Source: a virus. Taken from it: a stretch of 64,000 nt of DNA. The stretch covers positions 1-64,000 of IMG/VR virus record IMGVR_UViG_3300011115_000844; one strand, given 5' to 3'. Position numbers and translations under genes: made by a program. This document shows, one piece after another, positions 14,471-44,762 of the stretch. The notes beneath the pieces were generated by a model. That model was not told the origin of the DNA. It was given only the letters and a program-made list of their open reading frames with translations, and did not search any database. Every line of letters starts with the position of its first letter. Position 1 is the first letter of the stretch.

Positions 14471-14500
14471 AAAATGGTGGCTTAATTGCCACTTTTTTTT
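14469..14500. terminator. Bidirectional intrinsic terminator
   Basis: GTGGC/GCCAC stem flanked by A- and T-runs between convergent operons. Confidence 0.65.
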
Positions 14501-15171
14501 TAACTGTTCATTCCTACTAAATAAGAATTGTTTGCCGAAATGGTAAATGTTTCATTAAACGTAATAGCCGATGTTGTAGTATTATTATAAATGTACGTTG
14601 AAGTAGTTAAATTGTAAATGTATATGTTAGTACCCGTTGGTATTGCAGTTGTGCTACCTTGAAAAAGTATTGTATCACCTGCAACTACGGGTATGTTTCC
14701 ACTATCGGTATTAGGTGTGCCACCCGAATAAATAGTTACTGCATTTACATATATTTTTATAAGTGAAGCAACTCCACCATAATTAAACTGATAATTTAAT
14801 GCAGTTGTTGATGCAGGATTAAATATTTGCAAAGTTGCAAATGCAACATTATTGTTGTAGTTATTTATGAATGTAGAACCTCCACTTGTTGTTATAAAGA
14901 AAAACCCAACATTTAAAGTATTTAAGGTATCGCAAATAGATTGAATTGTTGTTCCACTAAAAATTAATTGAGCAATTGTATATATTATTCCACTTGTTCT
15001 ATATTGAATTGAAATAGTGTTTTCGTTTGTAATCGTAAAACCCGTTAAATTCCATTGATATTTTGTTGTAGCATTGGTTGTGTCCATTGCATCAGCATTA
15101 TTACCTAATATGCTTATTGGTACTGTACCATTGGTATTATTGGTTATGTTAAACGATATAACTTCTTGCAT
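14500..15171 (-). CDS. Putative minor virion protein (beta-rich, N/T-rich)
   Basis: N-terminus ISFNITNNTNGTVPISILG resembles the capsid candidate's YIITVSNASNTSISNFDVLG. Confidence 0.5.
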   Translation of the reverse strand: MQEVISFNITNNTNGTVPISILGNNADAMDTTNATTKYQWNLTGFTITNENTISIQYRTSGIIYTIAQLIFSGTTIQSICDTLNTLNVGFFFITTSGGSTFINNYNNNVAFATLQIFNPASTTALNYQFNYGGVASLIKIYVNAVTIYSGGTPNTDSGNIPVVAGDTILFQGSTTAIPTGTNIYIYNLTTSTYIYNNTTTSAITFNETFTISANNSYLVGMNS

Positions 15172-15180
15172 AAATTAAAA

Positions 15181-15651
15181 TTAAAGAATATCAACGTATT
15201 GGTCAAAATAATTAGTATCGTTCATGTTCCTTTCTACTGAAACAAAATTATTGATGCCTTGTAAATCAAGTGCATCAGTAGTAGCTATCCTATCGCAATA
15301 AAGTCGGATTAGTAAGTTTGAATTGGGTAACATATTAAAACGTACATAATCTCTACCATCTATAACTATATTTTTTTCTTTTGTATCAATAAATATGGAA
15401 GGTTGAAACTGATAAGGACTGATAGCACTTATTACTGATTGCAAATTTTGATTACCACTACTATCATATTTAGAGTAATTAAACAACCCTTTAATTTGAT
15501 TTAGTATTGAAGAAAATAAGTAAACAAAAAACACATTATAAACAAATTGACCTAAACTATTCTTGAATTGAGTATAGGTAGTATTTCCTTGTACGGTAAT
15601 ACTAATTGCAGGGGTTGTATTTGTAGTAACAGTAACACCAAATGAAGCCAT
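15181..15651 (-). CDS. Paralog of the major capsid candidate (putative minor capsid protein)
   Basis: Shares TY.QF, D..GNQ, I.PYQ.Q, IDG and LPN motifs in order with 37051..37839. Confidence 0.6.
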   Translation of the reverse strand: MASFGVTVTTNTTPAISITVQGNTTYTQFKNSLGQFVYNVFFVYLFSSILNQIKGLFNYSKYDSSGNQNLQSVISAISPYQFQPSIFIDTKEKNIVIDGRDYVRFNMLPNSNLLIRLYCDRIATTDALDLQGINNFVSVERNMNDTNYFDQYVDIL

Positions 15652-16259
15652 TATTTAAACTTTTTTTTATAATACCAATAACCCAATGCAGTTGACCCTA
15701 AAACTAAAATTGCTAAAAATGTGTAATTAATTTTTTTTTTATTGCTTTGATAAAATTCAATAACATTTATCAATAATAATCTTGCATTTAATCCTAAAGC
15801 ATATTTATCTGCTTCTTTTTGACCTTCGGGAGTGCTTATTTCGTGAACCCCAAAATAGTTTCTTGTTTTTAGTTTATTGGCAAATTCTTGGGCATCTTTA
15901 ACATCCCTTAATTCATTAAACCCAATACCATTTCTTGTTTTTTTATATAGTCTTTGTATTACGTCTTTTGCACTATCAATTGGATTATTATACTTTGCGT
16001 AATAATCCCTATCAACGCAAGTACCCCCTTTTGAACAAGAATCAGACCTTTCATTTAATGGTGCGAGTGTTCCCCTTGTGGCGAGAGGTTGTTTATCTTG
16101 ACCTATAAACTTCATCCCATACATATTATTGTTGTTATTAAAGACATTAGAGCCATAGTTGGCACTTTCAAGTCTTGCTTGTGCAACAATAAGTTTTGAG
16201 GCAATTGGTGAGAAACCCTCTTGTATGGCTAAATTGTATATTTCTTGGTCTAAATTCAC
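15651..16259 (-). CDS. GH73/glucosaminidase-like lysin with C-terminal TM anchor
   Basis: AQARLES, NNMYGMK, YAKY and LK...YF motifs; TM followed by KKKFK. Confidence 0.8.
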   Translation of the reverse strand: MNLDQEIYNLAIQEGFSPIASKLIVAQARLESANYGSNVFNNNNNMYGMKFIGQDKQPLATRGTLAPLNERSDSCSKGGTCVDRDYYAKYNNPIDSAKDVIQRLYKKTRNGIGFNELRDVKDAQEFANKLKTRNYFGVHEISTPEGQKEADKYALGLNARLLLINVIEFYQSNKKKINYTFLAILVLGSTALGYWYYKKKFK

Positions 16260-16864
16260 TACTTAAATTTTAATGTTTTTTCAGTTTCATCAAAATACAA
16301 TCTGTTCAATTCATCTTGTGAAAAATTCCTACGGATATAACCTTTAAAAACTTTAGTGCTACCTGCACTTGCTTTACCCACAACCAATGTTCTTTTTAAT
16401 TCTTCAACTCCTTGTCCTTCTCTAACACCTTTTAAATTTGTGTTTCCTTCTATCGTTAAAACATGAGTGTTATCAATTATTTCTTTTACTAAAGCGACAT
16501 GACCTTGCATACATATAATATCAGCAATTTGTGGCGTATTAGTATTTAAAAACACATATCTTTTATCGCCTCTTGCATTTAAATTAATTACATTCTCTAA
16601 AGTACCACTTGTACTGCCATTAAAATTTTTTGCTAAAAATTCTCTATCAAAAGAATAAAACTGCATATACACTAATTTGCAATAGTACATACACCATGCT
16701 TGACTACTTTTCCATCCAACTGCTTTCATCATGGCTTGAAAACTTGCATCTACAAAACCTACATTTTCTGAACCTTTTACTATTCTTTCCATTTGACCAC
16801 GAAACCCTTTGCTTGTCAAAAATGGATTAAAAACTGATAATAACGGATTTGCAATATCGGGCAT
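16259..16864 (-). CDS. CHAP-domain hydrolase
   Basis: WCMYY, GHVALV, TIEGNT; shares FQAMMKAVGW with 1543..2181. Confidence 0.85.
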   Translation of the reverse strand: MPDIANPLLSVFNPFLTSKGFRGQMERIVKGSENVGFVDASFQAMMKAVGWKSSQAWCMYYCKLVYMQFYSFDREFLAKNFNGSTSGTLENVINLNARGDKRYVFLNTNTPQIADIICMQGHVALVKEIIDNTHVLTIEGNTNLKGVREGQGVEELKRTLVVGKASAGSTKVFKGYIRRNFSQDELNRLYFDETEKTLKFK

Positions 16865-16878
16865 AATCTTAAATTTTA

Positions 16879-17022
16879 TTAATTAAATACTTGATAATCT
16901 TTAGCTATGTTTTTAACTGACTCTTCATAAACAATACGGGTTTGTCTTTTTTTATAAAAATAAAAACCTAATGAAGCAATTGCTAATGTACTTGTAAGTA
17001 GTATAATTGATTTTTTATTCAT
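16879..17022 (-). CDS. 47-aa membrane protein (not in ORF track)
   Basis: MNKKSIILLTSTLAIASLGFYFYKKRQ... Confidence 0.65.
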   Translation of the reverse strand: MNKKSIILLTSTLAIASLGFYFYKKRQTRIVYEESVKNIAKDYQVFN

Positions 17023-17026
17023 AGTA

Positions 17027-17410
17027 TTAATTATTTACCATTATTTCTTTTCCTTCAAGGTCGCATACAACTAATTTGTTATCGCTTTTTCTTCTGTAAA
17101 CCTTACACTTAAATTCCTTAGCAAATTCACGATTCAATTCATCAAGAACACTTTGAGGTTCGCCATTGTTATACGCACTAATGTATGCCTTTAAACAAGC
17201 AAAACCATTTTTAACTTTTGGGTCTGTTCCCATATCCTTTGCAGTTAAAGTTGGTGCAGACATTGTTTTTCTGTCCTTTGGGTCTTCCTCTTTATCAGTT
17301 ACTTTAATATTTGTAGTAGCATTAGGTTTTTTCATCTTTGGTTTAAAGATGTAAAACAATAATATCCCACCTCCAAATACAAGCAATGCTTTCTTTTGTA
17401 AATCTGTCAT
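17027..17410 (-). CDS. Putative virion membrane protein (N-terminal TM)
   Basis: TM followed by a K-rich segment. Confidence 0.65.
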   Translation of the reverse strand: MTDLQKKALLVFGGGILLFYIFKPKMKKPNATTNIKVTDKEEDPKDRKTMSAPTLTAKDMGTDPKVKNGFACLKAYISAYNNGEPQSVLDELNREFAKEFKCKVYRRKSDNKLVVCDLEGKEIMVNN

Positions 17411-17751
17411 TACGCTTTATTTTTTTTGTATAAATAAACACCAACTAATAATGCTATACCCACTATTGCATACACACTAATACGTTGCATATCTTTATTC
17501 TTTAACGCTTCTAATTCACTTCTTTTTGCTTGTTGTAAAACTAAATACGCATCATTTACATCAGATTGTGTTACCGCACCAAATTTATTAAGCAACAAAT
17601 CTAATTTGTCTTGTAATAATTTTGCATTGTTTGTTAATTCAGCAAAAACCGTATTTGACAAACCACCTTGTTTAATTCTATCTTTTATATCCCCAAGTTT
17701 GCTTTTTAATTCATCAACAATACTAAGTTGATTATTTGTTGTTGTTTCCAT
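17410..17751 (-). CDS. Putative virion membrane protein (coiled coil, C-terminal TM)
   Basis: Start moved to METTT; TM followed by KKNK. Confidence 0.65.
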   Translation of the reverse strand: METTTNNQLSIVDELKSKLGDIKDRIKQGGLSNTVFAELTNNAKLLQDKLDLLLNKFGAVTQSDVNDAYLVLQQAKRSELEALKNKDMQRISVYAIVGIALLVGVYLYKKNKA

Positions 17752-17752
17752 G

Positions 17753-18097
17753 CTATTTTTTTGTAAGTAAGTAAAGTCCTGCCAATAAAACAATAGAACC
17801 ACCTAATATAACTATTGCAGTCGTTCTTTCCCTTTGTGTCTTTGCTAATTCCTTTGATTGAATTGATGCTACACTTTGTGCTGATTTTAAAGAGGTTACT
17901 GCATTGAATAATAATTCAAGTTTTCTGTTACTATCGTTAGTTCTTGCCAAAGAATTTTCTAACGCTTGTTTTTGTCTATTATCAAGTAGTGCATACGCTT
18001 GTTCAAACTCCCTACGTTTTTTCATGTCGGAAATCTTCGCAACAGTTTCAGCAACCTGCGTACCTACTTTTATTGCATCATCTACACCAAACGCCAT
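17753..18097 (-). CDS. Putative virion membrane protein (C-terminal TM)
   Basis: Helical protein; TM followed by KK. Confidence 0.65.
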   Translation of the reverse strand: MAFGVDDAIKVGTQVAETVAKISDMKKRREFEQAYALLDNRQKQALENSLARTNDSNRKLELLFNAVTSLKSAQSVASIQSKELAKTQRERTTAIVILGGSIVLLAGLYLLTKK

Positions 18098-18117
18098 AAT
18101 ATTTCATTTTAAATTAT

Positions 18118-18600
18118 TTAAAGACCTATTGATGCAAGTGAATTTTGCATTGATAATGCACCAATCGTTTTTTGTATTGCTTTTTGTTTTATTACGTCAA
18201 TGTCTGCTTGACTACTTACTGATTTTTTACCTAAAACTTTAAATAATGCCGTTTCAGTTTCAGTACCAAAAAACTTATCAGCACCGAATTTAGGCAATGA
18301 TTTAGAATCAACTTTTAATAACAATTCTTGTAATTTTCCTACGCTATCATTTTTTTGACTTCTTCTAATTGGAAATACAAATTCTGTATAAGTTTCTTGT
18401 GTTGATGGCGTTGTAGTTGTACTTGTTGATGGCGTTGTAGTTGTACTTGTTGTACCTACATCTTTTTTCTTATCATCAACATTATTACTCCCTTGTGGCG
18501 TTCCTTTTGCTCTTAAACCTTTTATTACAAAGTAAATGGCAGTACCTACAAAAAGTAATGAAATTACCCCGATTGCTATTGTTCCTTTTTTGTTTGTCAT
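18118..18600 (-). CDS. Membrane-anchored peptidoglycan-binding protein
   Basis: N-terminal TM, Thr-rich linker, V.KLQ..L...D.FFG.ETE.AL (PG_binding_1-like). Confidence 0.7.
   Translation of the reverse strand: MTNKKGTIAIGVISLLFVGTAIYFVIKGLRAKGTPQGSNNVDDKKKDVGTTSTTTTPSTSTTTTPSTQETYTEFVFPIRRSQKNDSVGKLQELLLKVDSKSLPKFGADKFFGTETETALFKVLGKKSVSSQADIDVIKQKAIQKTIGALSMQNSLASIGL
18401..18448. repeat. 24-nt tandem repeat, two copies (TSTTTTPS linker)
   Basis: GTTGATGGCGTTGTAGTTGTACTT twice. Confidence 0.9.
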
Positions 18601-18630
18601 TTTTTAAATTTTACTTTAAGTTGTTATATT

Positions 18631-19356
18631 TTATTTTAATTCAAACCCATTAGGAGAAAAATAAAGTGACCTTTTCGGCTTCATATTTTCAAAATACAAT
18701 CTTATATTACCTTCGGGACTTACAAATGTTTTAGTATAACCTTTTGTACTTAGTTTTGTACCATTATGATAAATATATGTTTTTGGAGTTAATACTCTTC
18801 CATCAGTTGTATATTCTTCATAAATTACATTTGAATCTGCTAATCCATAAAAATCAAGGTTATTATTTAAACTTAAAGCATCAAGTAATTTATTTGATAA
18901 AATAATTGCATTATCGTATGTTGTTTTTAGAAATGCTTGGTTTTCAGCAGTTGTTTTCTTTTCGTTTGCTTTCTTAATTATTGCGTCAATATCATCTTGT
19001 GAATCAGCAGTTGTTTTACCTAAAATGCTTTGTAATGCGTCTGACGTAATTTTACCAAAGTCACCATCATCACGATATTTTCCTAATAATGTGTCATCAT
19101 ATAGCAATATTGCTCTTTGCAATTCTTTTACTTTACCACCTTTACTACCTTTTTTTAATGGGAATAGTTTTGCTACACTTGGGGTTACGCCACCACTACT
19201 ATTTGTTTCTACTTGACTATTTTGCTTTGGGTCATAATTGGGAGGTGCATCTTGACCTTTTCGCTTTGAATTTTTAACTGCTTTGTAAACAAAGTAAAGT
19301 CCTATTAAAGCAGGTACTCCAAAAATTACATACGGTAAAATCTTATTGTTTTTCAT
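18631..19356 (-). CDS. Membrane-anchored peptidoglycan-binding protein
   Basis: N-terminal TM; LKKGSKGGKVKELQ...DGDFGKIT..AL; start moved to MKNNK. Confidence 0.75.
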   Translation of the reverse strand: MKNNKILPYVIFGVPALIGLYFVYKAVKNSKRKGQDAPPNYDPKQNSQVETNSSGGVTPSVAKLFPLKKGSKGGKVKELQRAILLYDDTLLGKYRDDGDFGKITSDALQSILGKTTADSQDDIDAIIKKANEKKTTAENQAFLKTTYDNAIILSNKLLDALSLNNNLDFYGLADSNVIYEEYTTDGRVLTPKTYIYHNGTKLSTKGYTKTFVSPEGNIRLYFENMKPKRSLYFSPNGFELK

Positions 19357-19360
19357 TTTT

Positions 19361-19654
19361 TTATTTTTTAAATAAATACATAACGTATTGAATAATAAAA
19401 GACCAACCAATTCCTATAATGGTTAGTCCTCCTAATATTTTGCTTTTAACCAACTTATCATTATCAACGTATGCCTTAATATCATTTAACTCATTTACTA
19501 ACCCTTTCTGACCATAAACGGGATTTCCAATAACAGTTTGATTTAATTGCGTCAATGTTTTATCCATTTCACGCAACATACCATCCATGTCATTCTGCTT
19601 ATTAATCATCTGCGATAGCATTGACTTAATACTCTCTACGTTATTCTCTTCCAT
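19361..19654 (-). CDS. Coiled-coil protein with C-terminal TM (possibly holin-like)
   Basis: Heptad pattern followed by a hydrophobic tail. Confidence 0.5.
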   Translation of the reverse strand: MEENNVESIKSMLSQMINKQNDMDGMLREMDKTLTQLNQTVIGNPVYGQKGLVNELNDIKAYVDNDKLVKSKILGGLTIIGIGWSFIIQYVMYLFKK

Positions 19655-34389: not shown

Positions 34390-34391
34390 CT

Positions 34392-34879: not shown

Positions 34880-34882
34880 AAC

Positions 34883-35110: not shown

Positions 35111-35113
35111 AAA

Positions 35114-35515
35114 TTATTTTTTTCTAAAATAAAAAAATGCACCAACAACTAAAGCACCAACTATTATTAATTTAGTAGTTTTGCTCATGCCACTCGGTGT
35201 TGGTGGTGGAGTTGGGTTATTAGCTTCATCTAATTTTTTTGCTTCTGCTTCTAAATCTTTTTGTTCAAGTTCGGCTTTGGTTTGCTCGTTTTTTGCTTTT
35301 TGTTTATCGGCTTTGGCTTGTTCGTATTCAGCAGTTGCTTTCTCTACTTCACTTTGCGATTTGGCTTGTTCTAATTTAATTTTAGCCATTTTCATGTCAT
35401 ACTCTGCTTGTGCCTCTGCTTGTTTCTTTTTAACATATTCTCTTGACCTTGTAACCCCCGACCATGTAGTTAAATTAGAATAAGAATAGTCATTTACAAA
35501 TGTTTTGTTTTCCAT
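35114..35515 (-). CDS. Coiled-coil protein with C-terminal TM
   Basis: A/E/K/Q heptads, Pro linker, TM followed by RKK. Confidence 0.7.
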   Translation of the reverse strand: MENKTFVNDYSYSNLTTWSGVTRSREYVKKKQAEAQAEYDMKMAKIKLEQAKSQSEVEKATAEYEQAKADKQKAKNEQTKAELEQKDLEAEAKKLDEANNPTPPPTPSGMSKTTKLIIVGALVVGAFFYFRKK

Positions 35516-35519
35516 TTTT

Positions 35520-35756
35520 TTATTTTTTTTTCTTTAATAATACATAAGCAAGAATACCAACTACTAAAACGCCACCACCAATTAAAACGGGCATTAACCA
35601 CTTTTTTTTCTTAGGTTGTTCAGCAGGTGCATTAACATCATTTGACGTTGTAGCACCCGTTGTATCACCCGTAGGTTGCTCTAAACTTAATTTAGGGTTT
35701 ATACTACTTTGTCTTTGTGCTTCTTTTTGAATATTACCTATAAGACCTCTTGCCAT
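35520..35756 (-). CDS. Membrane protein (C-terminal TM; start moved to MARGL)
   Basis: C-terminus very similar to that of 35762..36571. Confidence 0.65.
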   Translation of the reverse strand: MARGLIGNIQKEAQRQSSINPKLSLEQPTGDTTGATTSNDVNAPAEQPKKKKWLMPVLIGGGVLVVGILAYVLLKKKK

Positions 35757-35761
35757 AACAA

Positions 35762-36571
35762 TTATTTTTTCTTTTTCATCACGAAATAAATGATAGTACC
35801 TAATACCAATATACCACCACCAATTGCAACGGGCATAACCCATTTTTTCTTTTCTTTATCATCAGTAGGAGTAACTTGTGGCAATTTGCCTTGTGCTTCT
35901 AAAACCTTCGCTTGTGCTAAAGCACTATCAGTTTTTGCTTTTTCAAAATCAATAGCTTGTTGATTAGTACCTTTTTGTGCGTTAGCATTTAATCTTGTAG
36001 AAAGATAACCCATACCAACATTTAAGTAATTTTGGATGTTTTCTTGCGAAAATAAAGTAGATAAAACTTCACCTGCTTTTGTTTTTTCTTTACCCGTTCC
36101 ATTTGCAAAGTTTGAATTTAAACTTTCAATTTTAGAAAGTTTATTTCTTTTTAAATTTGGAATTGAACTTTGTGCAATTCTAATTAATGAACCATCTCTT
36201 TGATTTCTTGGCTTTGGTAATCCATCACCCGTAACTTCAGCAACTATATAATCTTGCAAATTTTGTCTAAATTTAGGACTATCTTGAATCGCTTTAAAAG
36301 TAGCATCAATAATAGATTTTTTTGAAGACAAAGGGGTTACAAATGAACCTTGTCTTTGCAACATTCTTACCAATGCAGGTTTGTCAGTTTCCGATATAAC
36401 TGCAACTGCACTATTTATTGCAAATTGTGGGTCGGTAAACACCTCTTGTGTTTCAAAACTTGTTCTTTGACCTAAATTAAGTGTGTCACCACCATTTTGT
36501 ACTTGACTTGCTTTTTTTTGGTTAAGATAACCACTTGTTATTGCGTTTAAATTACCTTTACTAAACATCAT
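35762..36571 (-). CDS. Putative virion membrane protein (C-terminal TM)
   Basis: SNFANG motif; KKKWVMPVAIGGG TM. Confidence 0.7.
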   Translation of the reverse strand: MMFSKGNLNAITSGYLNQKKASQVQNGGDTLNLGQRTSFETQEVFTDPQFAINSAVAVISETDKPALVRMLQRQGSFVTPLSSKKSIIDATFKAIQDSPKFRQNLQDYIVAEVTGDGLPKPRNQRDGSLIRIAQSSIPNLKRNKLSKIESLNSNFANGTGKEKTKAGEVLSTLFSQENIQNYLNVGMGYLSTRLNANAQKGTNQQAIDFEKAKTDSALAQAKVLEAQGKLPQVTPTDDKEKKKWVMPVAIGGGILVLGTIIYFVMKKKK

Positions 36572-36584
36572 AATTTTTGTGTTT

Positions 36585-36977
36585 TTATTTTTTAACAATG
36601 ATTGCACTTGCTAATAATAAAGCAGATGCTATTATAATAATACCTATTTCTTTTGAAGAATTTTTGTTTTGGTTTTCGTTGCCAACAAAATTCATGTATT
36701 GCATATCATGATTACTTTTACAACCACAACCATTTGCATTACTAAAATTAGCTTCTTTTTTATTTTCAGAACTGTACTTCTCTATTAAAACATTTTTGTC
36801 GGGATGGCTATCCAAAACATCATTAAAAGCATTTTCGCCTTCATAAGCAACTACTTTTTTTAAGCAAATACCTAAATCGCCTTCATCTTTTACATTTTTA
36901 GCTGAATATCCGTATTTATGGATAATTGCTTTTGCTTGATAAGGGTTGCATGATGCAACGTAAGTGTATATATCCAT
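36585..36977 (-). CDS. Putative virion membrane protein (C-terminal TM)
   Basis: HPDK, FSNANG and MNFVG motifs; TM followed by KK. Confidence 0.7.
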   Translation of the reverse strand: MDIYTYVASCNPYQAKAIIHKYGYSAKNVKDEGDLGICLKKVVAYEGENAFNDVLDSHPDKNVLIEKYSSENKKEANFSNANGCGCKSNHDMQYMNFVGNENQNKNSSKEIGIIIIASALLLASAIIVKK

Positions 36978-37050: not shown

Positions 37051-37839
37051 TTAACCTAAACGTGCCTTAACGGTATCGCCTCCGATTACTGCTACTGAAC
37101 TCTTAACCACTTGTGGGTTAGTGAATTGACGTGAAGCAGAACGACCTGCAAGACCACGAGCAATGTTGATGTTATCAGCAGGGTAGAATTGGAATTGTAC
37201 TACTGCATTTGGTAACAAAGTAGAGATAGTTAATTTAGTGTAACCATCAATTCTGTACAATTGCTTAACTGCAACAACTGTTGTTTGTTGTTGATATGGG
37301 TCAATTGTGATTACCAACGTCTTTAATGCTTGATTACCATTAGCATCTTGTGTGTTCAAGGTGATAGGTTGAGTAATTTGAGCAGAAGAACCTCCCAAAG
37401 ATTGAATGTAAGTTAAACCTACACTAAATGGACTGTTCATTGATTGATACAAAAATTGTTGGTAAGTAACGTTACTGATACCACTTGATACAGTTACTTG
37501 AATAGCCGTTCCCGTTGCTACTAAACTACCATTACTATATGTAGTTGTTGTAACGGGAGTTGAAGGCATTGAAGCGTTGTTGATATACTGATACGCACCT
37601 AATACGTCAAAGTTAGAAATACTTGTATTAGAAGCATTTGAAACTGTAATGATGTAAGGTTGTGAAGTTGGTGCAGATTGCATTTGAGGTTGAGCCATTG
37701 GCATTCCACCATCAGCATTGAAGAAATCATCTCCACCCGTAAAGTACATTGAATCATCATCAATGAAACCATCTGCATTTAAGTAATTTTCGTTTGCGAA
37801 GTTTCTCGCATTTTCCATGTATTGTCTAATGTATGACAT
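37051..37839 (-). CDS. Candidate major capsid protein (beta-rich, jelly-roll-like)
   Basis: Next to the packaging ATPase; own promoter and strong terminator; codons typical of high expression (AAC/TTC/ATC/CGT); paralogs at 14.5-15.6 kb. Confidence 0.6.
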   Translation of the reverse strand: MSYIRQYMENARNFANENYLNADGFIDDDSMYFTGGDDFFNADGGMPMAQPQMQSAPTSQPYIITVSNASNTSISNFDVLGAYQYINNASMPSTPVTTTTYSNGSLVATGTAIQVTVSSGISNVTYQQFLYQSMNSPFSVGLTYIQSLGGSSAQITQPITLNTQDANGNQALKTLVITIDPYQQQTTVVAVKQLYRIDGYTKLTISTLLPNAVVQFQFYPADNINIARGLAGRSASRQFTNPQVVKSSVAVIGGDTVKARLG

Positions 37840-37873: not shown

Positions 37874-37990
37874 TTATTTTGTTGGAGCAGATACTTTTGC
37901 TTTGTTCATTTGCTCTTTAACTTTTAATGCTACAAGAACTCCTGCCGTTACAATTAGTAATTGAACTCCGATTGCTTTCCAATTTCCCAT
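37874..37990 (-). CDS. 38-aa membrane peptide upstream of the capsid candidate (not in ORF track)
   Basis: MGNWKAIGVQLLIVTAGVLVALKVKEQMNKAKVSAPTK. Confidence 0.7.
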   Translation of the reverse strand: MGNWKAIGVQLLIVTAGVLVALKVKEQMNKAKVSAPTK

Positions 37991-38074
37991 TTTTTTAAAT
38001 TTTAATTTTTTGATTAATGAATTTCTTTTTTGTATTTGTTTTATAAGCACGAGCCATTAAAAACATTTACACAC

Positions 38075-38204: not shown

Positions 38205-39053
38205 TTAAAATACGAAATAGTTTTTGGTTAAACTTTCGTTTGCAGACCTAAGTGCAGATTCTTCTGTATGTATTTTCTTTCCTTGCTTATCCCTTAATTG
38301 TAGCATTGGGGATATGATACGGGAGTATCTTTCAGTAATATATTGGTGTACTGCGTTATCAACTTCTTCTTTTGTAAACTTACCTCTAATCTTCATGTTC
38401 TCTACATCTACATAAACAAAGAACCTTATATCGCCATCAAAGTATCTTTTGTTTATCATGTATTCAGCAATTTGAAGTAACTCTGTTTTTTCTTCAAATT
38501 TATTTTTGTGACGTTCAACTGTATCGTTTGTTTTGTGCAAACGTATCATGTTCAAGTTACCCAATAGTTTTGGATTACCTGCTCTACCTATGTTTTGGAA
38601 ATGGCTAACAATATCAAGACCAATATGCCTTGATGTAGCAAGTGAACCAATTAAATCAGATGGCATAGCATCACTCAAATACTTATTAATATCCTCTACC
38701 AATAACAACCCATTACGATAGTTGTCAAGTATGATACCCAACACTTCTGCCATATCATTAATAGTCATCTTTCTTCCATCATCCCAAAATGGTCTTATTC
38801 TTCTAACCTCTACTTTCGGGTGTATAGAAAACTTCATTATATCTTTAATCGAAATGGCTTTTATAGACCTTTGTTGACCAAAAAACCAAAACGAACTAAA
38901 TTCATCATTAACATCAAAAATCAATGCTTTTCTTGGTGGAACTCCCTTAGTAGGATTACCTGCAACGTAATCATCAATCATGCGTATTGTTTCAACGGAT
39001 TTACCCACACCCCTCTTGCCACACGCTATTATAATTCTACATTCTCTACTCAT
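38205..39053 (-). CDS. FtsK/HerA-family (A32-like) genome-packaging ATPase
   Basis: Walker A GKRGVGKS, Walker B LLLVED, arginine finger SRH, HFQ sensor. Confidence 0.75.
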   Translation of the reverse strand: MSRECRIIIACGKRGVGKSVETIRMIDDYVAGNPTKGVPPRKALIFDVNDEFSSFWFFGQQRSIKAISIKDIMKFSIHPKVEVRRIRPFWDDGRKMTINDMAEVLGIILDNYRNGLLLVEDINKYLSDAMPSDLIGSLATSRHIGLDIVSHFQNIGRAGNPKLLGNLNMIRLHKTNDTVERHKNKFEEKTELLQIAEYMINKRYFDGDIRFFVYVDVENMKIRGKFTKEEVDNAVHQYITERYSRIISPMLQLRDKQGKKIHTEESALRSANESLTKNYFVF

Positions 39054-39057: not shown

Positions 39058-39276
39058 TTATAGTTTACCTACAAATTTATATCCGTTTAATTCAAGTTGT
39101 TTTGTAAATTTCAACATTTGCCCTTTATCGTATGCGTTATAATCTTTCATAACATAGTCCTTTACTGAATAATCATAAAACTGATACCAAACGGTGTAAC
39201 CACCACTTGCATTATCATATACGGTATATTTTTTCAAATTATTTCTTTTTTGGTCTTCCTCTTTTACCACTACCAA
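39058..39276 (-). CDS. Hypothetical protein (start uncertain, possibly TTG 39237)
   Basis: Fills the gap between operon genes. Confidence 0.5.
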   Translation of the reverse strand: MVVVKEEDQKRNNLKKYTVYDNASGGYTVWYQFYDYSVKDYVMKDYNAYDKGQMLKFTKQLELNGYKFVGKL

Positions 39277-40213
39277 TAGGTTTATTTGTACCTTCTGAAA
39301 TGATAGTTAATTTATTACTTGGTTCGGTAGGTTGCTCTGCAACAAACTCTTCTTGATATATTGGTTCATCAACGATTGCACCCGACATTGAATTTACAAA
39401 ATCATTCACGTTAGTATCGGGATTAAATGGTTTGCTATACGTTTGTTGTGGTGGAGGTGGAGGTGCTTGATATGTTGGTTGTGGTTGTGGTATTGGTTGT
39501 GGTGCAACATTCTGCATCTTGGTAACTTGTACTGCTTCTTTTAAAGTTTTTAAGATTTCTTTTTTTACGTTGTAACCTTGATTAAACATAAACGCACTTA
39601 CCAATACTTCTTTACCTGCTAAATACCAAAGTAATTGTTCATCGGTCATGCCGATACCCTTCTTTTCAAGAACACGAACAAGAACGGGTTTAAATTCAGT
39701 TTCAAACTCTTCTGTAACTACTAATGTACCTTTTGTTTGTTCATTGTAATCATCAATAAATTCACCTGCCGTCATAGATAGAGTTGGAGAAACTTGAATT
39801 TCAACATTCAAATCTATTTCCCCCTTCTCCTGCATTTTATTCAATTGCTTTTGATTGAATAAAAGTTGCGTATCTGCCCAACCCTTACCAAACTTGTATG
39901 TGGACATAATCATGTCTGCTACCTTTTCAGAAGCATCGTGTTTATCCTTTTTTGGCAAACTATCCATTTTAGGATTGAATGGTTGTTCTTGTGGCTTTTT
40001 TACTTTCTCTTCCGAACTCATTTGCCCTCCCATTGGTGGTGGAATAAATGAAGGTTCGGGAATATCATTTGCAAAATCTTTAGCATCAACTTTTACATTG
40101 TGCTTGGTATATTCTTTTTCTAAAACGGGTTCACCCAATGGGTCAAAATCATCAAATACAAATTCATCGTTGATTTCTTTTTCTTCGGGTTCTTGAAATT
40201 CTTTATTACTCAT
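39239..40213 (-). CDS. Acidic, Pro-rich protein with C-terminal AT-hook-like motif
   Basis: Ends KRGRPKKK; close to the packaging ATPase. Confidence 0.65.
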   Translation of the reverse strand: MSNKEFQEPEEKEINDEFVFDDFDPLGEPVLEKEYTKHNVKVDAKDFANDIPEPSFIPPPMGGQMSSEEKVKKPQEQPFNPKMDSLPKKDKHDASEKVADMIMSTYKFGKGWADTQLLFNQKQLNKMQEKGEIDLNVEIQVSPTLSMTAGEFIDDYNEQTKGTLVVTEEFETEFKPVLVRVLEKKGIGMTDEQLLWYLAGKEVLVSAFMFNQGYNVKKEILKTLKEAVQVTKMQNVAPQPIPQPQPTYQAPPPPPQQTYSKPFNPDTNVNDFVNSMSGAIVDEPIYQEEFVAEQPTEPSNKLTIISEGTNKPIGSGKRGRPKKK

Positions 40214-40677: not shown

Positions 40678-41763
40678 TTACAATCCTTCAACTTTTTTTA
40701 TAACAAAATGATAATGATGTTTTCTACAATAATTATTTGAAAAATTTTTATTTTCACAACCTTCAATAGAACATAATTTTACGGTATTTAAAAATTTATC
40801 TGAATCTAATAAACCCCAATCTTTTATAACTGAACTCCACTTTTTAATACTTTTGTAAACTTCACTATCAATAACTTCAAGTCTTATATTTGGGTAATAC
40901 AATTTCATTCTTTTTAATTTCGTTTTTGATTTATCATCCATCCAACCCTTAACCTCTATAAAATATGTACTACCATCATTATTTGTAATTTTAAAATCGG
41001 GTAAATATGACCTCACACCTCTTTTTATTTTTTCAAACCAAAAGGTTTCTACTTCATGTTCCCAATCTTTTATTTCATTTTTAGATTTTAAAAATTCAAG
41101 ATAAGCACTAATATTACACTCCCAAGATGACCTTGCAAAAAATGTTTTATTCCCAATAGTAACTGTTCCCCTTTTTACTCTATTATAATTATTTACTGAA
41201 TTATTCCTAACCTTTTCACTCATAAATTTTGACATATAATCTGATTTTTTTTGCCTACATTCCTGCGAATTAAATTTACTATTAGGGTCTGCCCATAACT
41301 TTTTACATCTTTCTGAAAATTTTATTTTTGATTCTTCTGTATGCTTTTTACCAAGCATCCCTTTTGGATGACCTTGTTCTTTAATCCATTTCTTAAATCT
41401 TTCCGAAGTTTCTTTACTTTTATACTTCATGGATATTCTATTATTCTTATCAGTAAGACCTAATTCGTTTGCTTTTCTTGATAAAAAACCATCTGTTCTA
41501 CCCATGATTTTAGCAAGTTTCTTTAACTCCCCAACATCTCTATATTTTTTGTAATTTTCTTTTAAAAAATCAAAATCTTTTTGAGTAAAATAATTCATTT
41601 TTTTTATTACCCCTGCTTTAGTTAAGTAAGAATGAACTATTTGACCACTCATTTTATATTTTTCTGCTACTTTCCAAATATTATTTATCTCTTTGTAAGA
41701 ATCAATTAAATCTTGCAAATTACAAATTATACTACCTTTATACTTAACGATTTTATCTTGCAT
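40678..41763 (-). mobile_element. Putative homing endonuclease, PD-(D/E)XK type with NUMOD3
   Basis: GKKHTEESK.K.S; RSSWE, YLPDF and IEVKG motifs; C-terminal Cys/His finger. Confidence 0.7.
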
Positions 41764-41786: not shown

Positions 41787-42434
41787 TTATAGTTTATACT
41801 TTTCTTTGAACTCCTTATTTTTCAAAACCTTGTCAGCACAAAATATACCTACATCAATATCGCTTTGATAATGCAGTCCTAAGTAAACCCTTGAATAGCA
41901 TATATCTTTAAAAACGTCTTGCATAAATGAATACGTCTTAGGATATATGTTACCTATAACTTCTGTAAGTAATCTTGTTTGAAATGCGTGTCCACTTGGG
42001 AACGAAGGAGAATCAGCACTTATACTTTTGAATGGAAATAATTTTAGTTTGTAGTAATGTGCAAGTTGATATGGTCTTGGTCTTTGAAATGTGAATTTCA
42101 ATTTTGTTAGCAACGGCTTTGTATCTTCGATAATATCGGTAATTATCTTTTTTACTTCTTCTTCATTTTCGCCTCCTTTAATTAAACCATCAGTAAAATA
42201 CCTTGACAAATGTTTATCATAAACCATGTATCTGTTTATGTAGTCCTCTTTACCTTTTAAAGTATTGATGTACGATACTATTTCGTTTAACTCCTCTTGC
42301 GTTGCTTCCGATGAATTTTTTGGAAATGTATATGTAGATAATTCTTCTAATAATACATCAAGGTAGTTATTAGTAGAAATGTATTTTAATTGTTCAAGAT
42401 TGGGGTTGCCATAGCTTATTTCATCTATATTCAT
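41787..42434 (-). CDS. PAP2-superfamily phosphatase
   Basis: K...QRPRP, PSFPSGH and SRVYLGLHYQSD motifs. Confidence 0.88.
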   Translation of the reverse strand: MNIDEISYGNPNLEQLKYISTNNYLDVLLEELSTYTFPKNSSEATQEELNEIVSYINTLKGKEDYINRYMVYDKHLSRYFTDGLIKGGENEEEVKKIITDIIEDTKPLLTKLKFTFQRPRPYQLAHYYKLKLFPFKSISADSPSFPSGHAFQTRLLTEVIGNIYPKTYSFMQDVFKDICYSRVYLGLHYQSDIDVGIFCADKVLKNKEFKEKYKL

Positions 42435-42463: not shown

Positions 42464-42823
42464 TTAAATAGTTTTGTACTTACCCTTCATATTGGTTTGC
42501 ATATTCATCTTGATTTCATCAATTTGTCTTTGCAATTCATTATTGATAAGTTTATCTTGTTTCAACTTAAATTGATAGTAGTATATAACGTAAGATAAAC
42601 TTGCTACTCCTAAAATTGAAAATCCAATTTCCATTAAATTTAAACTTTTCCAAAAAGATTTTCCACCACCATTATCTCCACCTTCCGTACTACCACCCTC
42701 ACCCATAACCACGTTAGGCATAGGCGTAGGAGTTGGTGCAGTTGGCATAGGAGCAGGTGCAGGAGTTGGTGCAGGTGCTATTGGCGTTGTTGGTGCAGTT
42801 GGTGTTGCTATTGGTGTTTCCAT
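42464..42823 (-). CDS. Pro/Thr-rich membrane protein
   Basis: PT/PA repeats, central TM, coiled tail. Confidence 0.65.
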   Translation of the reverse strand: METPIATPTAPTTPIAPAPTPAPAPMPTAPTPTPMPNVVMGEGGSTEGGDNGGGKSFWKSLNLMEIGFSILGVASLSYVIYYYQFKLKQDKLINNELQRQIDEIKMNMQTNMKGKYKTI

Positions 42824-43029
42824 TATGATTTTCCGTTAAGTCTTTTTAGTGAAATTAAAATACCAAGTGTAAATGCAAGAGTACCTACAATTAAATAACC
42901 CATGTACAAATGTTCTTTGATATTTTGTTTCTTTTCAGTTTCAATATCTTTTTTCAATTCTTCATTTGTTTCGGGAGCATAAGCAGTTGTAGTGTTCCCA
43001 TCATTGTCTTTTAGTATTATCTTTCTCAC
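42823..43029 (-). CDS. Small membrane protein (C-terminal TM)
   Basis: TM followed by KR. Confidence 0.6.
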   Translation of the reverse strand: MRKIILKDNDGNTTTAYAPETNEELKKDIETEKKQNIKEHLYMGYLIVGTLAFTLGILISLKRLNGKS

Positions 43030-43955
43030 TATTGTTTCTTTTTTCTTGTTAAAAAATATAATAGTGCTAACCCACCTAATATTAAATATAACCCCATGTT
43101 ACTTTTTTTCTCTTGGGGTGCTACTGTATTAGTTGGAGGTTCTCCAAATCCACCACCACCACCACCAAAAATTCCACCACCAATTGGAGGTAATACTATT
43201 GGAGCAGGGGGTGTTACATTACATTTGCCATTATAAATTGCTTGTGCTTTCGCTATTTCGGTATTGTATGCTTCTACTACGTTTTGAGCAAATGTTGATG
43301 TTGAAAGAATTGCATTATATTCAGCAATTTTATCTTTTAAGGTTGTACAATCAAGTGTTGACCAAACGGGAAAATTAGGCAAGGTATCAACTAAAGGTTT
43401 AGGACTTGTACTTGTTACACACGCACCATTAATCCAAGCACCACCACTATTAATACAAGTAGTTTCAGCAGGTAATGGTTCGGGTGCAGGACTTGTTTGA
43501 CAAGTGCCATTTACCCACAGACCACCATTTGATACACATAATTGTTGTGCAGTAGCAGGAGCAGGTTGTGAACTTATACAAGCACCATTAACCCATGTAC
43601 CACCACTATTCATACAATTAACTTCGGCAGTAGATGGACTTGTTGGTGGATATATTGGTTCTTGTGGTTGACCAATAGGCACTCCCGTACCACTATTACC
43701 CGTATTGGTAGGGTCATTAGGTGTATCGGGAGGTGGAACGTTAGCACCTGCAACCATGACAAAATGTTCATTATCGGGTTGACCAAAACCACCACGTTTA
43801 GGAACAATAAAGTTTTCTTCACCATCAAAGGGTATTACGGCTATCCTTTTTTTAACCCTTATTTTTGGTTTATTTACTAATCCCCTTGATGGTTTATTTA
43901 CTAACCCTCTTGAATCATCAATACTTGCTGATTTATTTACTAATGCTCTTCCCAT
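43029..43955 (-). CDS. Membrane-anchored protein with three C-x3-GG-x-W-x-NG-x-C repeats
   Basis: CMNSGGTWVNGAC, CVSNGGLWVNGTC, CINSGGAWINGAC; C-terminal TM followed by RKKK. Confidence 0.75.
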   Translation of the reverse strand: MGRALVNKSASIDDSRGLVNKPSRGLVNKPKIRVKKRIAVIPFDGEENFIVPKRGGFGQPDNEHFVMVAGANVPPPDTPNDPTNTGNSGTGVPIGQPQEPIYPPTSPSTAEVNCMNSGGTWVNGACISSQPAPATAQQLCVSNGGLWVNGTCQTSPAPEPLPAETTCINSGGAWINGACVTSTSPKPLVDTLPNFPVWSTLDCTTLKDKIAEYNAILSTSTFAQNVVEAYNTEIAKAQAIYNGKCNVTPPAPIVLPPIGGGIFGGGGGGFGEPPTNTVAPQEKKSNMGLYLILGGLALLYFLTRKKKQ

Positions 43956-43959
43956 TTTA

Positions 43960-44088
43960 TTAAATTTTACCTTCTTTTTTTAATTCTTTGGTAGCACGAG
44001 AAATAGCATCAGACCATTTTTCAGTACCTTTCTTGTAAATTTTTTTTGCCCTTGCTGATATAAGGGTAATTTTACTTCCTTTTGCCAT
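43960..44088 (-). CDS. 42-aa basic protein (not in ORF track)
   Basis: MAKGSKITLISARAKKIYKKGTEKWSDAISRATKELKKEGKI. Confidence 0.7.
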   Translation of the reverse strand: MAKGSKITLISARAKKIYKKGTEKWSDAISRATKELKKEGKI

Positions 44089-44090
44089 AA

Positions 44091-44204
44091 TTATGATTTT
44101 TGACTTGAATGCCATGCTTTACCAATAACCCATACTGTACCAAATAATACTGCAAGTGATACTGCAATTCCTAAAGCACCTCCTATTAAATTTTTCTTTT
44201 CCAT
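44091..44204 (-). CDS. 37-aa membrane peptide (not in ORF track)
   Basis: MEKKNLIGGALGIAVSLAVLFGTVWVIGKAWHSSQKS. Confidence 0.7.
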   Translation of the reverse strand: MEKKNLIGGALGIAVSLAVLFGTVWVIGKAWHSSQKS

Positions 44205-44273
44205 TTTTTTATGTTTTATATTTAAAAAATTTGTAGTAAAGATAAAAAATAATTGCAATAATCATTACATTAA

Positions 44274-44762
44274 TTATTCTCTATTTTTCAAAATATTAAC
44301 GCCTATCAAACCTCCAATAACTATACCAACAATCCACAATGCTATATTGGTTTTTTTAGGTTTTTCTTCTTGTGTTACATTACCTGCAACATTCTGCACG
44401 TTTGGTTGTGCATTTGGTTGTGGTGTAGGTTTTGCAACATTCGGTTGTTGTTGTGCATCTTTTTTAGGTCTTCCTCTGCCAACTAAGTTTTTAGAAAGAT
44501 TAGCATAATGTTCTTTGTTTTTATCGAACATTGTTACTGCTTTAACTAAAACCCTATCTTGTTCTTCTAACGCATCGTTTAACTCTTCTAAATCAGTTTT
44601 CAATTCATCTACATCATCATTCAATGTAGGGTTTTCAATTGATTTTTCAAGTTCTCCAATACCATCAACAATCGTGTAATAATCTTTAATTTTGTTTCTG
44701 ATTCCTTGTGATACAGTTTCTTCTGTTAATCCAAAACCGTCAAGTGTTTGTTTCCATTTCAT
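44274..44762 (-). CDS. Coiled-coil protein with AT-hook-like motif and C-terminal TM
   Basis: GRGRPKK; Q/P linker; TM. Confidence 0.7.
   Translation of the reverse strand: MKWKQTLDGFGLTEETVSQGIRNKIKDYYTIVDGIGELEKSIENPTLNDDVDELKTDLEELNDALEEQDRVLVKAVTMFDKNKEHYANLSKNLVGRGRPKKDAQQQPNVAKPTPQPNAQPNVQNVAGNVTQEEKPKKTNIALWIVGIVIGGLIGVNILKNRE

Follow-up and report, generated by a model that had tools for sequence, protein, structure and literature searches.

Gene content of the late block and the genome ends

The late gene block described here lies at positions 14500-44762 of a 64-kb stretch of DNA, referred to as the window, which is part of the complete linear virus genome IMGVR_UViG_3300011115_000844 (74,101 bp). 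Every gene in this block is on the minus strand. The annotated features of the window are as follows.

1..653, no strand: left inverted terminal repeat, exact reverse complement of genome positions 73449-74101 (beyond the window)
14500..15171, minus strand: N/T-rich beta-type protein, 223 aa, last late-block gene
15181..15651, minus strand: 156-aa small beta-sandwich protein paralogous to the capsid candidate
15651..16259, minus strand: glucosaminidase-type peptidoglycan hydrolase with a C-terminal transmembrane (TM) anchor (Pfam Glucosaminidase, E 3.5e-9)
16259..16864, minus strand: CHAP-domain peptidoglycan peptidase (Pfam CHAP, E 3.9e-6)
16879..19654, minus strand: seven small single-TM proteins, the helix terminal and flanked by K/R residues in each (TM scan)
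23479..30658, minus strand: three fibre genes (718, 301, and 1262 aa) with a common MADFG..GFFGGE N terminus and a 104-aa ORF between
30670..31889, minus strand: three small conserved proteins (an 89-aa beta protein, a 139-aa protein, and a 166-aa membrane-anchored LEA_2 beta-sandwich)
31889..33366, minus strand: three single-pass TM proteins (TM scan)
33359..34141, minus strand: conserved 260-aa HEXXH protein, putative gluzincin maturation protease
34141..36977, minus strand: a run of about eight single-pass TM proteins, the last being a 130-aa protein (36585-36977)
37051..37839, minus strand: large beta-sandwich protein, 262 aa, major capsid protein candidate
37874..38050, minus strand: small TM ORF in a conserved 365-nt gap between ATPase and capsid genes (one TM helix; homologues in 18 loci)
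38205..39053, minus strand: FtsK/HerA superfamily ATPase, B204/A32-like, 282 aa, genome-packaging role inferred
39239..40213, minus strand: conserved 324-aa protein directly upstream of the ATPase (49 loci and the distant relative G001)
40678..41763, minus strand: DUF1064/Holliday-junction-resolvase-like nuclease with an N-terminal HTH region (Pfam DUF1064, E 1.6e-6; phrog_190, E 2.2e-21)
41787..42434, minus strand: PAP2-family lipid phosphatase (Pfam PAP2, E 3.3e-9)
42464..44762, minus strand: further single-TM proteins, helix mostly terminal (119, 68, 308, 55, and 162 aa)
44882..59692, minus strand: adjacent block, outside the present finding, with polyvalent/polyprotein genes (946, 321, and 1229 aa), a 520-aa LPD29-like protein, an intein-bearing AAA_5 ATPase, and a DUF7192 protein

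The sequence-only reading had inferred a large virus genome; this stands, but the genome measures 74.1 kb, not 64 kb. Its two terminal repeat copies are identical at 653 of 653 positions (blastn), and IMG/VR classes the ends of the record as inverted terminal repeats (ITRs). In the source run, the repeat forms a separate unitig (22-653; Logan contigs, which cannot tell hairpin from protein-capped ends). The distant complete relative G001 (69 kb) has ITRs as well, of 2123 bp, and they are also found in tectiviruses and sphaerolipoviruses (PMC12643093). Replication of the ends is unexplained because no protein-primed polymerase or terminal protein was recognized: a six-frame search for protein-primed family B DNA polymerase (PF03175) was blank in both complete genomes, and no polymerase family appeared in any ORF scan. 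A 259-aa protein was considered as a tiny PolB but was unsupported by Pfam, PHROGs, NCBIfam, and PF03175. The sequencing run in which this genome is best represented is labeled viral metagenome, which fits particle-borne DNA; for the left genome end, no RNA run was identified.

Calling TM helices by the Kyte-Doolittle scale (17-residue window, ≥1.7), we found that 21 of the 50 late-block ORFs encode a single TM helix located at either terminus, and that 20 of these 21 carry at least 3 K/R residues within 8 residues of the helix. Some proteins fall just below the threshold, for example the product of 35520-35843 and the glucosaminidase (15651-16259), whose C terminus is a hydrophobic stretch followed by KKKFK. 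An initial count of more than 25 small single-TM proteins is a little high, since strict criteria give 21 and relaxed ones about 25, but the enrichment is real: the remainder of the genome has 1/30, 0/9, and 2/27 such ORFs. ORFs with a TM helix make up 11/28 in PRD1, 10/32 in the structural block of SSIP-1, and 3/22 in the head-tail block of lambda, where none of the 22 is a single-terminal-TM protein. The TM share of the late block resembles those of PRD1 and SSIP-1 and is unlike that of the lambda block. Several of these genes keep their surroundings in relatives: of 80 related loci, 70 encode the 130-aa C-terminally anchored protein alongside the capsid protein, the PAP2 gene holds the same position in 36 loci, and the three small proteins at 30670..31889 (LEA_2, E 2.4e-6) are conserved across 10 to 18 related loci.

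The putative packaging ATPase and the paralogous beta-sandwich proteins

The FtsK/HerA A32-like ATPase recognized at the outset is indeed present: the protein encoded at 38205-39053 has a Walker A motif at residue 12, and its nearest match is B204, which ranked first in both Foldseek and VIA searches. Residues G17, K18, and D121 are invariant and E120 nearly so. The lineage has 465 ATPase clusters at 50% identity. With a P-loop core, Walker A and B motifs, and a single domain of ~200 to 280 aa, the protein meets the criteria of the viral A32/B204 packaging clade, whose members are known to drive genome packaging in icosahedral internal-membrane viruses (PMC8328091). Identity to B204 of STIV/STIV2 (Turriviridae) is only 17%, and the ATPase studied here has ~55 additional C-terminal helical residues; the B204 viruses also differ from this virus in their archaeal hosts and double jelly-roll capsid. 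No match to Pfam Pox_A32 was obtained, and the ATPase sequence by itself does not match DUF87 either.

DndH, HerA, and VirB4 trail B204 by just 1.5 to 3 Z units in this comparison. One alternative is that the ATPase and TM proteins form the DNA-transfer apparatus of a linear plasmid-like or conjugative element. Against this, B204 ranks first, the ATPase has neither the TM domains nor the additional ones seen in coupling proteins and VirB4, and no relaxase or T4SS family was found in any scan. The element also encodes four peptidoglycan hydrolases in addition to fibres, its beta-sandwich protein is highly conserved (2050 homologues), and the run that represents it best is a viral-particle metagenome; we therefore give this explanation very little credence.

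Around the ATPase, the gene order is ATPase, small TM ORF, capsid gene, and TM proteins, corresponding to P9, P20, P3, and P22 in PRD1; by position, the 37874..38050 ORF would be the analogue of P20. The 324-aa protein has disordered, Pro-rich ends and an AT-hook-like RGRP motif near its C terminus; it is possibly a packaging accessory or DNA-binding protein, but its role is unknown. The DUF1064 nuclease lies within this packaging module, and relatives carry shorter homologues at the same place.

The beta-rich capsid candidate at 37051-37839 likewise held up, with 13 strands in an AlphaFold2 model. Its folded core (approximately residues 58 to 222) is one sandwich of ~165 residues, preceded by a conserved N-terminal arm bearing the motifs YLNADGF and FFNADGGM. 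The best structural matches are of the beta-sandwich class, with solely jelly-roll-type proteins among them. The second, 156-aa protein is a paralogue (hhalign of capsid family A1 against small-protein family A3: probability 97.1%, E 6.3e-11, 108 columns) and is proposed to be a second capsid protein or penton. Its family has 121 matches, almost all exactly 156 aa long, and some members, as in the capsid family, are on 64- to 74-kb contigs. In the window genome, the small paralogue is encoded 22 kb away from the large one; G001 also encodes two all-beta proteins (39044-39784 and 41165-41866), both near the ATPase. The pair are probably single jelly rolls, although the vertical single-jelly-roll fold was not confirmed. 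A complex prediction for the large protein (residues 55 to 262) with the small one (score 0.01, mark 0.32) has no bearing on whether the two bind. No sequence or profile similarity between the capsid candidate and solved capsid proteins was detected, the ESM Atlas yielded no usable neighbour of it and contains no model of it, and PDB profile searches with the families of the capsid candidate, its small paralogue, the HEXXH protein, and the 324-aa protein (A1, A3, A4, and A5) gave nothing meaningful. The 223-aa protein that ends the block has no Pfam, PHROG, or NCBIfam match and is dissimilar to the capsid family; it is possibly a vertex or spike component, its role being unknown.

Because the capsid candidate, judged by its modeled core, seems too small to form a double jelly roll, the two-single-jelly-roll plan of Singelaviria and SSIP-1 is the nearer model. 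The tectiviruses and corticoviruses among the models initially put forward fit less well for the same reason.

These proteins could instead belong to a membrane virus of another build, be it enveloped, pleomorphic, or with a new capsid fold, in which the beta-sandwich proteins would be spikes, nucleoplasmin-like pentamers, or matrix proteins instead of vertical jelly-roll capsomers. We judge this unlikely, since B204/A32-like ATPases are known to serve icosahedral internal-membrane viruses as packaging motors, and the order of ATPase, TM ORF, and capsid gene mirrors that of PRD1. Both the strictly kept length of 156 aa and the conserved terminal arms, which lack a confident fold, are in keeping with lattice-forming proteins; conserved, poorly folded terminal arms are typical of capsid proteins.

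Fibres, protease, and the search for tailed-phage hallmarks

The C terminus of the longest fibre (1262 aa) is a Peptidase_S74 intramolecular chaperone (E 9e-11), and PHROG tail-fibre matches cover only the C-terminal part of the fibre. Tailed phages and conjugative elements are where polyvalent proteins and S74-chaperone fibres are best known. The virus might be a highly divergent tailed phage (Caudoviricetes, perhaps a podovirus) whose hallmarks have drifted past detection and whose ATPase and TM proteins serve DNA transactions, exclusion, or lysis. The fibre domains speak for this, as do polyvalent proteins with LPD and ART domains, which are typical tailed-phage cargo; the genome size would be ordinary, and ORFs of 432, 363, 344, and 324 aa are still unassigned.

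The sequence-only reading had recognized no terminase, portal, HK97 capsid, tail tube, or tape measure gene, and Pfam and PHROG scans of all large ORFs, together with six-frame searches of the whole genome for TerL, portal, and HK97 families, agree. It had also named the presence of TerL, portal, and an HK97 capsid gene on the same genome as grounds for refutation; none of the three was found in the complete genome or in G001. For TerL, Pfam and PHROG scans of ORFs of at least 400 aa gave no match, and PF03237 and PF03354 were blank in six-frame searches of both genomes, although extreme divergence is not excluded. No portal family appeared in any scan, and PF04860, the sole portal Pfam family run in six frames, was blank in both genomes. 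PF05065 (HK97 capsid) was blank in six frames and no PHROG head family matched; the 432-, 363-, and 344-aa ORFs were not folded. For tail tube, tape measure, and baseplate, just the fibre C-terminal domains matched tail PHROGs; core tail genes were not found in these scans, but fibre genes with a tail-fibre-type C-terminal chaperone domain do occur, at 26870-30658. NCBIfam searches with ten core proteins gave no match.

PHROG terminase matches of the 823-aa AAA_5 protein are confined to its intein (residues 150 to 521, with a Pfam homing endonuclease at 367 to 439), and the N terminus of the 520-aa ORF resembles LPD29 rather than a portal. A basic early protein matched phrog_24 (E 0.0023), but only as noise from low-complexity sequence.

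Besides these blank searches in two complete genomes, the four lineage-conserved genes have no helix-rich, HK97-like character, the most conserved being all-beta, and the 21 TM proteins of the structural block have no counterpart in the lambda head-tail block. A tailed phage accordingly has, in our estimate, only a small chance of being the right explanation.

In the HEXXH protein, residues H186, E187, H190, E200, and E202 are invariant in 30 homologues, 5 of which show weak Peptidase_M48/M56 matches; identity to the G001 counterpart is 37%. Proteins of the adjacent block are probably cargo processed at [FYM]A[DNK]GG sites. If virion proteins matured by such cleavage as well, the strategy would be one known elsewhere in adenoviruses and ASFV-like viruses.

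A proposed virion plan, its relatives, and the host

The region is best explained as a morphogenesis module, that of a tailless internal-membrane bacterial virus with a 74.1-kb linear double-stranded DNA genome and 653-bp ITRs, although direct evidence is lacking for a virion, for lipid, and for icosahedral symmetry. The initial inference of a large-genome lineage of membrane viruses is supported by the blank searches for TerL, portal, and HK97 genes, the perfect ITRs, the second paralogous beta-sandwich protein, the PRD1-like gene order, the PAP2 gene, and the density of TM proteins.

In this proposal, an icosahedral shell would be built from two paralogous small beta-sandwich proteins, the 262-aa protein being the major species and the 156-aa protein a second capsid protein or penton. 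It would enclose a host-lipid vesicle studded with ~21 to 25 virus-coded single-pass proteins, held by their helix-adjacent Lys/Arg clusters; lipid modification by the PAP2 phosphatase is possible. The B204/A32-like FtsK/HerA ATPase, for which the fold is established and the role inferred, would pump DNA into a preformed particle at one vertex, docking, as in PRD1, on small TM proteins encoded on both sides of the capsid gene. Three alternative fibres could occupy the vertices through their common N-terminal anchoring peptide, and membrane-anchored glucosaminidase and CHAP enzymes would open the peptidoglycan at entry. The HEXXH protease probably trims the capsid N-terminal arm and may cut the neighbouring polyproteins at [FYM]A[DNK]GG.

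This plan shares with PRD1 (Tectiviridae) its gene order, membrane-associated lytic enzymes, ITRs, and vertex spikes. PRD1 differs in its 395-aa double jelly-roll P3 (versus a single sandwich core of ~165 aa), its protein-primed PolB and terminal protein, neither of which was found here, and its 15-kb genome (versus 74 kb). In hhalign comparisons, the ATPase family aligned with PRD1 P9 in the Walker A region only and the capsid family did not match P3; HMM searches with all five core profiles against PRD1 and SSIP-1 ORFs gave nothing below E 0.1. Sphaerolipoviridae and other Singelaviria (SH1, HHIV-2, and Thermus phage P23-77) share the inferred tailless internal-membrane plan, two paralogous capsid-type beta-barrel proteins, an adjoining FtsK/HerA-type packaging ATPase, and a linear ITR genome (PMC12643093, PMC12714852). 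Their genomes, however, are 16 to 31 kb rather than 69 to 74 kb, their hosts are a haloarchaeon or Thermus rather than a mesophilic aquatic bacterium, and the HEXXH protease and polyvalent polyproteins set the present virus apart. No tailless membrane phage described earlier is larger than SSIP-1 (43.8 kb), which infects Salisaeta and has a similar share of TM proteins; its genome is circular rather than linear, and GC content and habitat differ. To our knowledge, 69 to 74 kb is 2 to 7 times the genome size of any described prokaryotic virus of internal-membrane tailless build. A PRD1-type architecture with two major capsid protein types has been reported for SSIP-1 (PMC6356626); metagenomic double jelly-roll viruses have genomes of 7 to 18 kb (PMC5894146), and sphaerolipoviruses reach ~30 kb (PMC12643093).

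The window genome and G001 have in common only the ATPase, two paralogous beta-sandwich proteins, the HEXXH protease, one further protein, and many TM proteins. The core conserved across this deep divergence consists of the ATPase, capsid protein, protease, and the further protein, with only 7 of 99 ORFs shared overall.

A Bacteroidota host had been considered probable, and it remains plausible but not proven: Shine-Dalgarno motifs are absent, leaders are A-rich, and the host is inferred to be a bacterium with genes free of such motifs, most likely a member of the Bacteroidota. The Bacteroidota promoter pattern TTTG-N17-23-TAnnTTTG was not enriched (4 matches versus 9.7 expected). Binning of metagenome-assembled genomes pointed to two Chlamydiota bins and one Ignavibacteria bin, which we did not take as host evidence because these are short free contigs.

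On balance we favor, with somewhat better than even confidence, a widespread new aquatic lineage of tailless internal-membrane phages whose plan is closest to those of sphaerolipoviruses, SSIP-1, and PRD1; virion, lipid, and capsid fold have not been shown directly. More tentative, and as a whole rather doubtful, is a fuller version: a lineage of family to class level (or higher) with 65- to 74-kb linear ITR genomes, a capsid over an internal membrane made of two paralogous small beta-sandwich proteins without sequence kinship to known capsid proteins, maturation of cargo polyproteins as well as virion proteins by [FYM]A[DNK]GG cleavage, a packaging module whose Holliday-junction resolvase hints at telomere or concatemer resolution, and a lineage largely missed by virus catalogues. 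If the proposal is correct, the prokaryotic size range of the tailless membrane architecture would stretch toward the small eukaryotic giant-virus relatives, a large share of aquatic unknown virus contigs would not be tailed phages, and the lineage would be a new test case for the scale-up of single-jelly-roll capsids, membrane vesicles, and FtsK/HerA motors. It is directly workable: two of its genomes are complete, four hallmark genes can be used for mining, and the host group (freshwater Bacteroidota) is likely culturable.

IMG/VR scans found only one close and one distant relative, the P0270 search found none, and neither the ATPase nor the capsid protein had a tblastn match among 50,697 phage records. 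Three IMG/VR records of the lineage were identified versus at least 401 metagenome contigs, and capsid homologues number in the thousands in lake, river, drinking-water, and ocean metagenomes.

Genome ends and the search for tailed-phage hallmarks

The window record is a single contig of 74,101 bp (GC content ~30%), of which the window represents the first 64,000 bases. The first 653 bases of this genome and its final 653 (73449-74101) are exact reverse complements of each other, and IMG/VR classes the ends of the record as inverted terminal repeats (ITRs). Source-run contigs show the ITR as a unitig of its own (22-653), whose junction with unique sequence falls exactly at 653. Drinking-water data from an unrelated run contain a contig that begins less than about 10 bases from the same genome end. 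The repeat, the unitig joint and the independent contig start together establish that the genome is complete and linear. Source-run depth was 8.5 for the ITR unitig versus 21.2 for the unique part, despite two ITR copies per genome; the physical ends are under-sampled, as expected if they are blocked or capped.

Genes between 2.3 and 14.5 kb lie on the plus strand, RecT and a PD-(D/E)XK nuclease among them, and nearly all genes from 14.5 to 73.4 kb lie on the minus strand. Immediately inside the left ITR are three features:

888-1331, minus strand: CHAP-type lysin
1543-2181, minus strand: CHAP-type lysin
2194-2265, minus strand: tRNA-Gln(TTG)

A distant IMG/VR relative, G001 (69,028 bp), is also classed as having ITRs, which are perfect and 2123 bp long; its ATPase is 30% identical to that of the window. 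CheckV put completeness at 57% for the window genome and 39% for G001, although both have perfect ITRs at both ends; it appears that the usual virus-detection pipelines recover too little of this lineage.

The sequence-only reading had recognized no terminase, portal or HK97 capsid gene, and this absence now extends to two complete genomes. Scans of the window genome against Pfam and/or PHROGs, covering all ORFs of at least 400 aa and most of at least 150 aa, were blank for these genes apart from the intein matches described below, as were six-frame searches of both genomes for Terminase_6N, TerL_ATPase, Phage_portal and HK97 Phage_capsid, in which controls were positive. The sole "tail" matches in the Pfam and PHROG scans were fibre C termini with an S74 chaperone, and a 520-aa ORF is similar to LPD29, a polyvalent-protein domain.

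The "terminase" PHROG matches of one protein were rejected. They cover only residues 150 to 521 of an 823-aa AAA_5 (MoxR/CobS-like) ATPase (51986-54457, minus strand) that carries a LAGLIDADG intein at approximately residues 150 to 511; Pfam places a homing endonuclease at 367 to 439, and the AAA_5 domain picks up again at 512. The "terminase," "primase" and "DnaC" PHROG matches of this protein all fall within its intein and could mislead automated annotation.

Probable packaging ATPase, capsid candidates and TM proteins

The proposed virion genes occupy the late block (14.5 to 44.8 kb, minus strand) and include the following:

38205-39053, minus strand: ATPase, 282 aa, HerA/B204-type by profile and fold
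37051-37839, minus strand: capsid candidate, 262 aa
15181-15651, minus strand: small beta-sandwich protein, 156 aa

As a single sequence, the ATPase has no Pfam or PHROG match. Its family comprises 465 clusters at 50% identity, and 34 of 75 family members match DUF87/HerA. Searched against the PDB, a 75-member profile retrieved HerA (E = 9e-5) and B204, the packaging NTPase of STIV2 (6e-4) and STIV (1.4e-3). In Foldseek, the excellent AF2 model (pLDDT 96) ranked B204 chains top (E = 2.6e-8, TM score 0.63 to 0.66 by target), followed by the Zot N-domain (4e-6). The sequence-only reading had named clustering of the ATPase with conjugative VirB4/TraD proteins, together with a candidate that is not a jelly roll, as a refutation of its membrane-virus reading; with B204 first, a single domain and no TM segments, the ATPase part of that refutation does not apply. 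The margin of B204 over cellular relatives is modest.

The capsid candidate has 2050 homologs at E values up to 0.001, none of them named. Its AF2 model is mediocre (mean pLDDT 61) and better in the core (residues ~58 to 222, block means 55 to 88), where it contains 13 strands and short helices. The N-terminal (1 to 57) and C-terminal (223 to 262) arms have no confident fold and many invariant residues. On the strength of the modeled core, the protein is one beta-sandwich, which could be a jelly roll; its small size rules out a double one. The proposed jelly-roll capsid protein is thus supported as a beta-rich single sandwich, with the jelly-roll fold itself unproven.

The 156-aa protein matches the capsid-candidate profile as a single sequence (E = 8.4e-6), and profile-profile comparison aligns the two families over 108 columns (probability 97.1%, E = 6.3e-11). 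Both share the motifs NxTYxQF, GNQ, PYQxQ and IDG. Judged by these alignments, the 156-aa protein is a paralog of the capsid candidate, newly recognized here. Members of its family are almost exactly 156 aa long throughout, and some lie on long contigs of capsid-family sizes.

Exactly one terminal TM helix was found in 21 of 50 late-block ORFs, 20 of which carry at least three Lys/Arg residues beside the helix; across the remaining three parts of the genome the shares are 1/30, 0/9 and 2/27. The same script, applied to reference phages and counting ORFs with any TM helix, gave 11 of 28 in the tectivirus PRD1, 10 of 32 in the structural block of SSIP-1 (a 43.8-kb tailless membrane phage of Salisaeta) and 3 of 22 in the lambda head-tail block, where none of the three is of the single-terminal type. 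The late-block TM density thus matches that of known internal-membrane phages. The enrichment noted in the sequence-only reading was borne out; its figure of more than 25 small terminal-TM proteins with Lys clusters exceeds our strict count, with a few further ORFs just below the TM threshold. A PAP2 lipid phosphatase gene is kept within the module across relatives.

Fibers, hydrolases and a candidate maturation protease

Three fibers (718, 301 and 1262 aa) have a common N-terminal MADFG..GFFGGE peptide, which suggests, by inference, a single docking site, as for adenovirus fiber tails on pentons. Just downstream of the fiber genes is a putative glycan-modification cassette (19636-23413, minus strand) with a P-loop protein at 20285-20743; homologs of 20285-20743, 20995-21825 and 22538-23413 are kept in relatives. 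The late block ends with a glucosaminidase (C-terminal TM anchor) and a CHAP enzyme, which with the two left-end lysins make four peptidoglycan hydrolases.

A 260-aa HEXXH protein has invariant H186, E187, H190, E200 and E202, and its relatives give weak M48 or M56 matches. The motif [FYMLIW][ASN][DNKE]GG occurs 22 times in the whole proteome against 1.7 expected, and 19 occurrences fall in three polyvalent proteins adjoining the module:

44882-47722, minus strand: polyvalent protein, 946 aa
48299-49264, minus strand: polyvalent protein, 321 aa
56003-59692, minus strand: polyvalent protein, 1229 aa

There the motifs separate unrelated domains (GNAT, DUF3140, DUF5661, ART-PolyVal, DUF2958) and are candidate cleavage sites. 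The same counts, 19 in these proteins and 22 in the whole proteome, hold for the narrower form [FYM]A[DNK]GG. The N-terminal arm of the capsid candidate contains YLNADGF and FFNADGGM. The HEXXH enzyme could plausibly carry out proteolytic maturation at these sites, a link that is still hypothetical; the motif is much rarer in G001 (6 in total). An HNH/NUMOD homing endonuclease (47726-48271, minus strand) is inserted between two of the polyprotein genes.

Conserved gene order, comparison with known viruses and host

The capsid protein is encoded on at least 401 metagenome contigs, versus only two other records in IMG/VR scans. The metagenome samples come from lakes and rivers, from drinking water and from Tara ocean stations. 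On the 80 contigs examined for synteny, order is kept down to 52% identity: PAP2, (resolvase), a 142-aa protein, a 324-aa protein, the ATPase and a gap of ~300 nt with a small TM ORF, then the capsid gene, a 130-aa TM protein, TM proteins, the HEXXH protein, TM proteins, a LEA_2 protein and fibers.

BLASTP pairs only 7 of the 99 G001 ORFs with proteins of the window genome. These are its ATPase, capsid candidate (25% identity, E = 6e-10) and HEXXH protein (37% identity), plus two TM proteins, a polyvalent-protein domain and the protein encoded upstream of the ATPase. G001 also encodes many TM proteins and a second beta-sandwich paralog (233 aa), to which the capsid profile aligns over the whole core; its two paralogs lie 1.4 kb apart, adjoining the ATPase. 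The paralog pair, ATPase, protease, ITRs, many TM proteins and ~70-kb genome are common to both genomes and are therefore lineage traits.

This plan is closest to that of viruses with two single-jelly-roll capsid proteins, such as Singelaviria (PMC12714852) and Sphaerolipoviridae (PMC12643093), and of SSIP-1, with two capsid protein types (PMC6356626). In gene order the closest is PRD1, whose P9, P20, P3, P22 and following membrane proteins are mirrored here. The core proteins have no sequence similarity to those of Singelaviria, Sphaerolipoviridae, SSIP-1 or PRD1, and known genomes of prokaryotic viruses of this build are 2 to 7 times smaller than the 69- and 74-kb genomes of this lineage. 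None of the papers searched describes such a lineage, in keeping with the earlier suggestion of a large-genome, possibly undescribed membrane-virus lineage. We lean toward a tailless internal-membrane virus lineage, with only fair confidence because virion, lipid and capsid fold are all inferred.

Replication-type genes include RecT, an exonuclease and a replication-initiator-like protein; neither complete genome yielded a protein-primed PolB. Within the packaging module lies a DUF1064 Holliday-junction-resolvase-like nuclease (40678-41763, minus strand). It is 361 aa long here, with an extra N-terminal HTH/D5N-like part, and ~150 aa in relatives at the same place (L024:7042-7488 and L052:6974-7432, loci on other contigs).

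A set of four peptidoglycan hydrolases indicates that the host is a bacterium. A Shine-Dalgarno (SD)-like core precedes 3 of 108 genes, which is chance level, and adenine peaks upstream of genes at -13 to -10, -5 and -3, with the same pattern in G001; Bacteroidota naturally do without SD sequences and rely on A at -3 (PMC6847099). The probable Bacteroidota host of the sequence-only reading is thus favored by the missing SD signal and A-rich leaders but not demonstrated. Relatives occur in MAG bins labeled Chlamydiales, Chlamydiae and Ignavibacteria (L084, L085 and L086); all three are short free contigs whose labels say nothing beyond how they were binned. That two of the three bins carry a Chlamydiota label is odd, though probably mis-binning.
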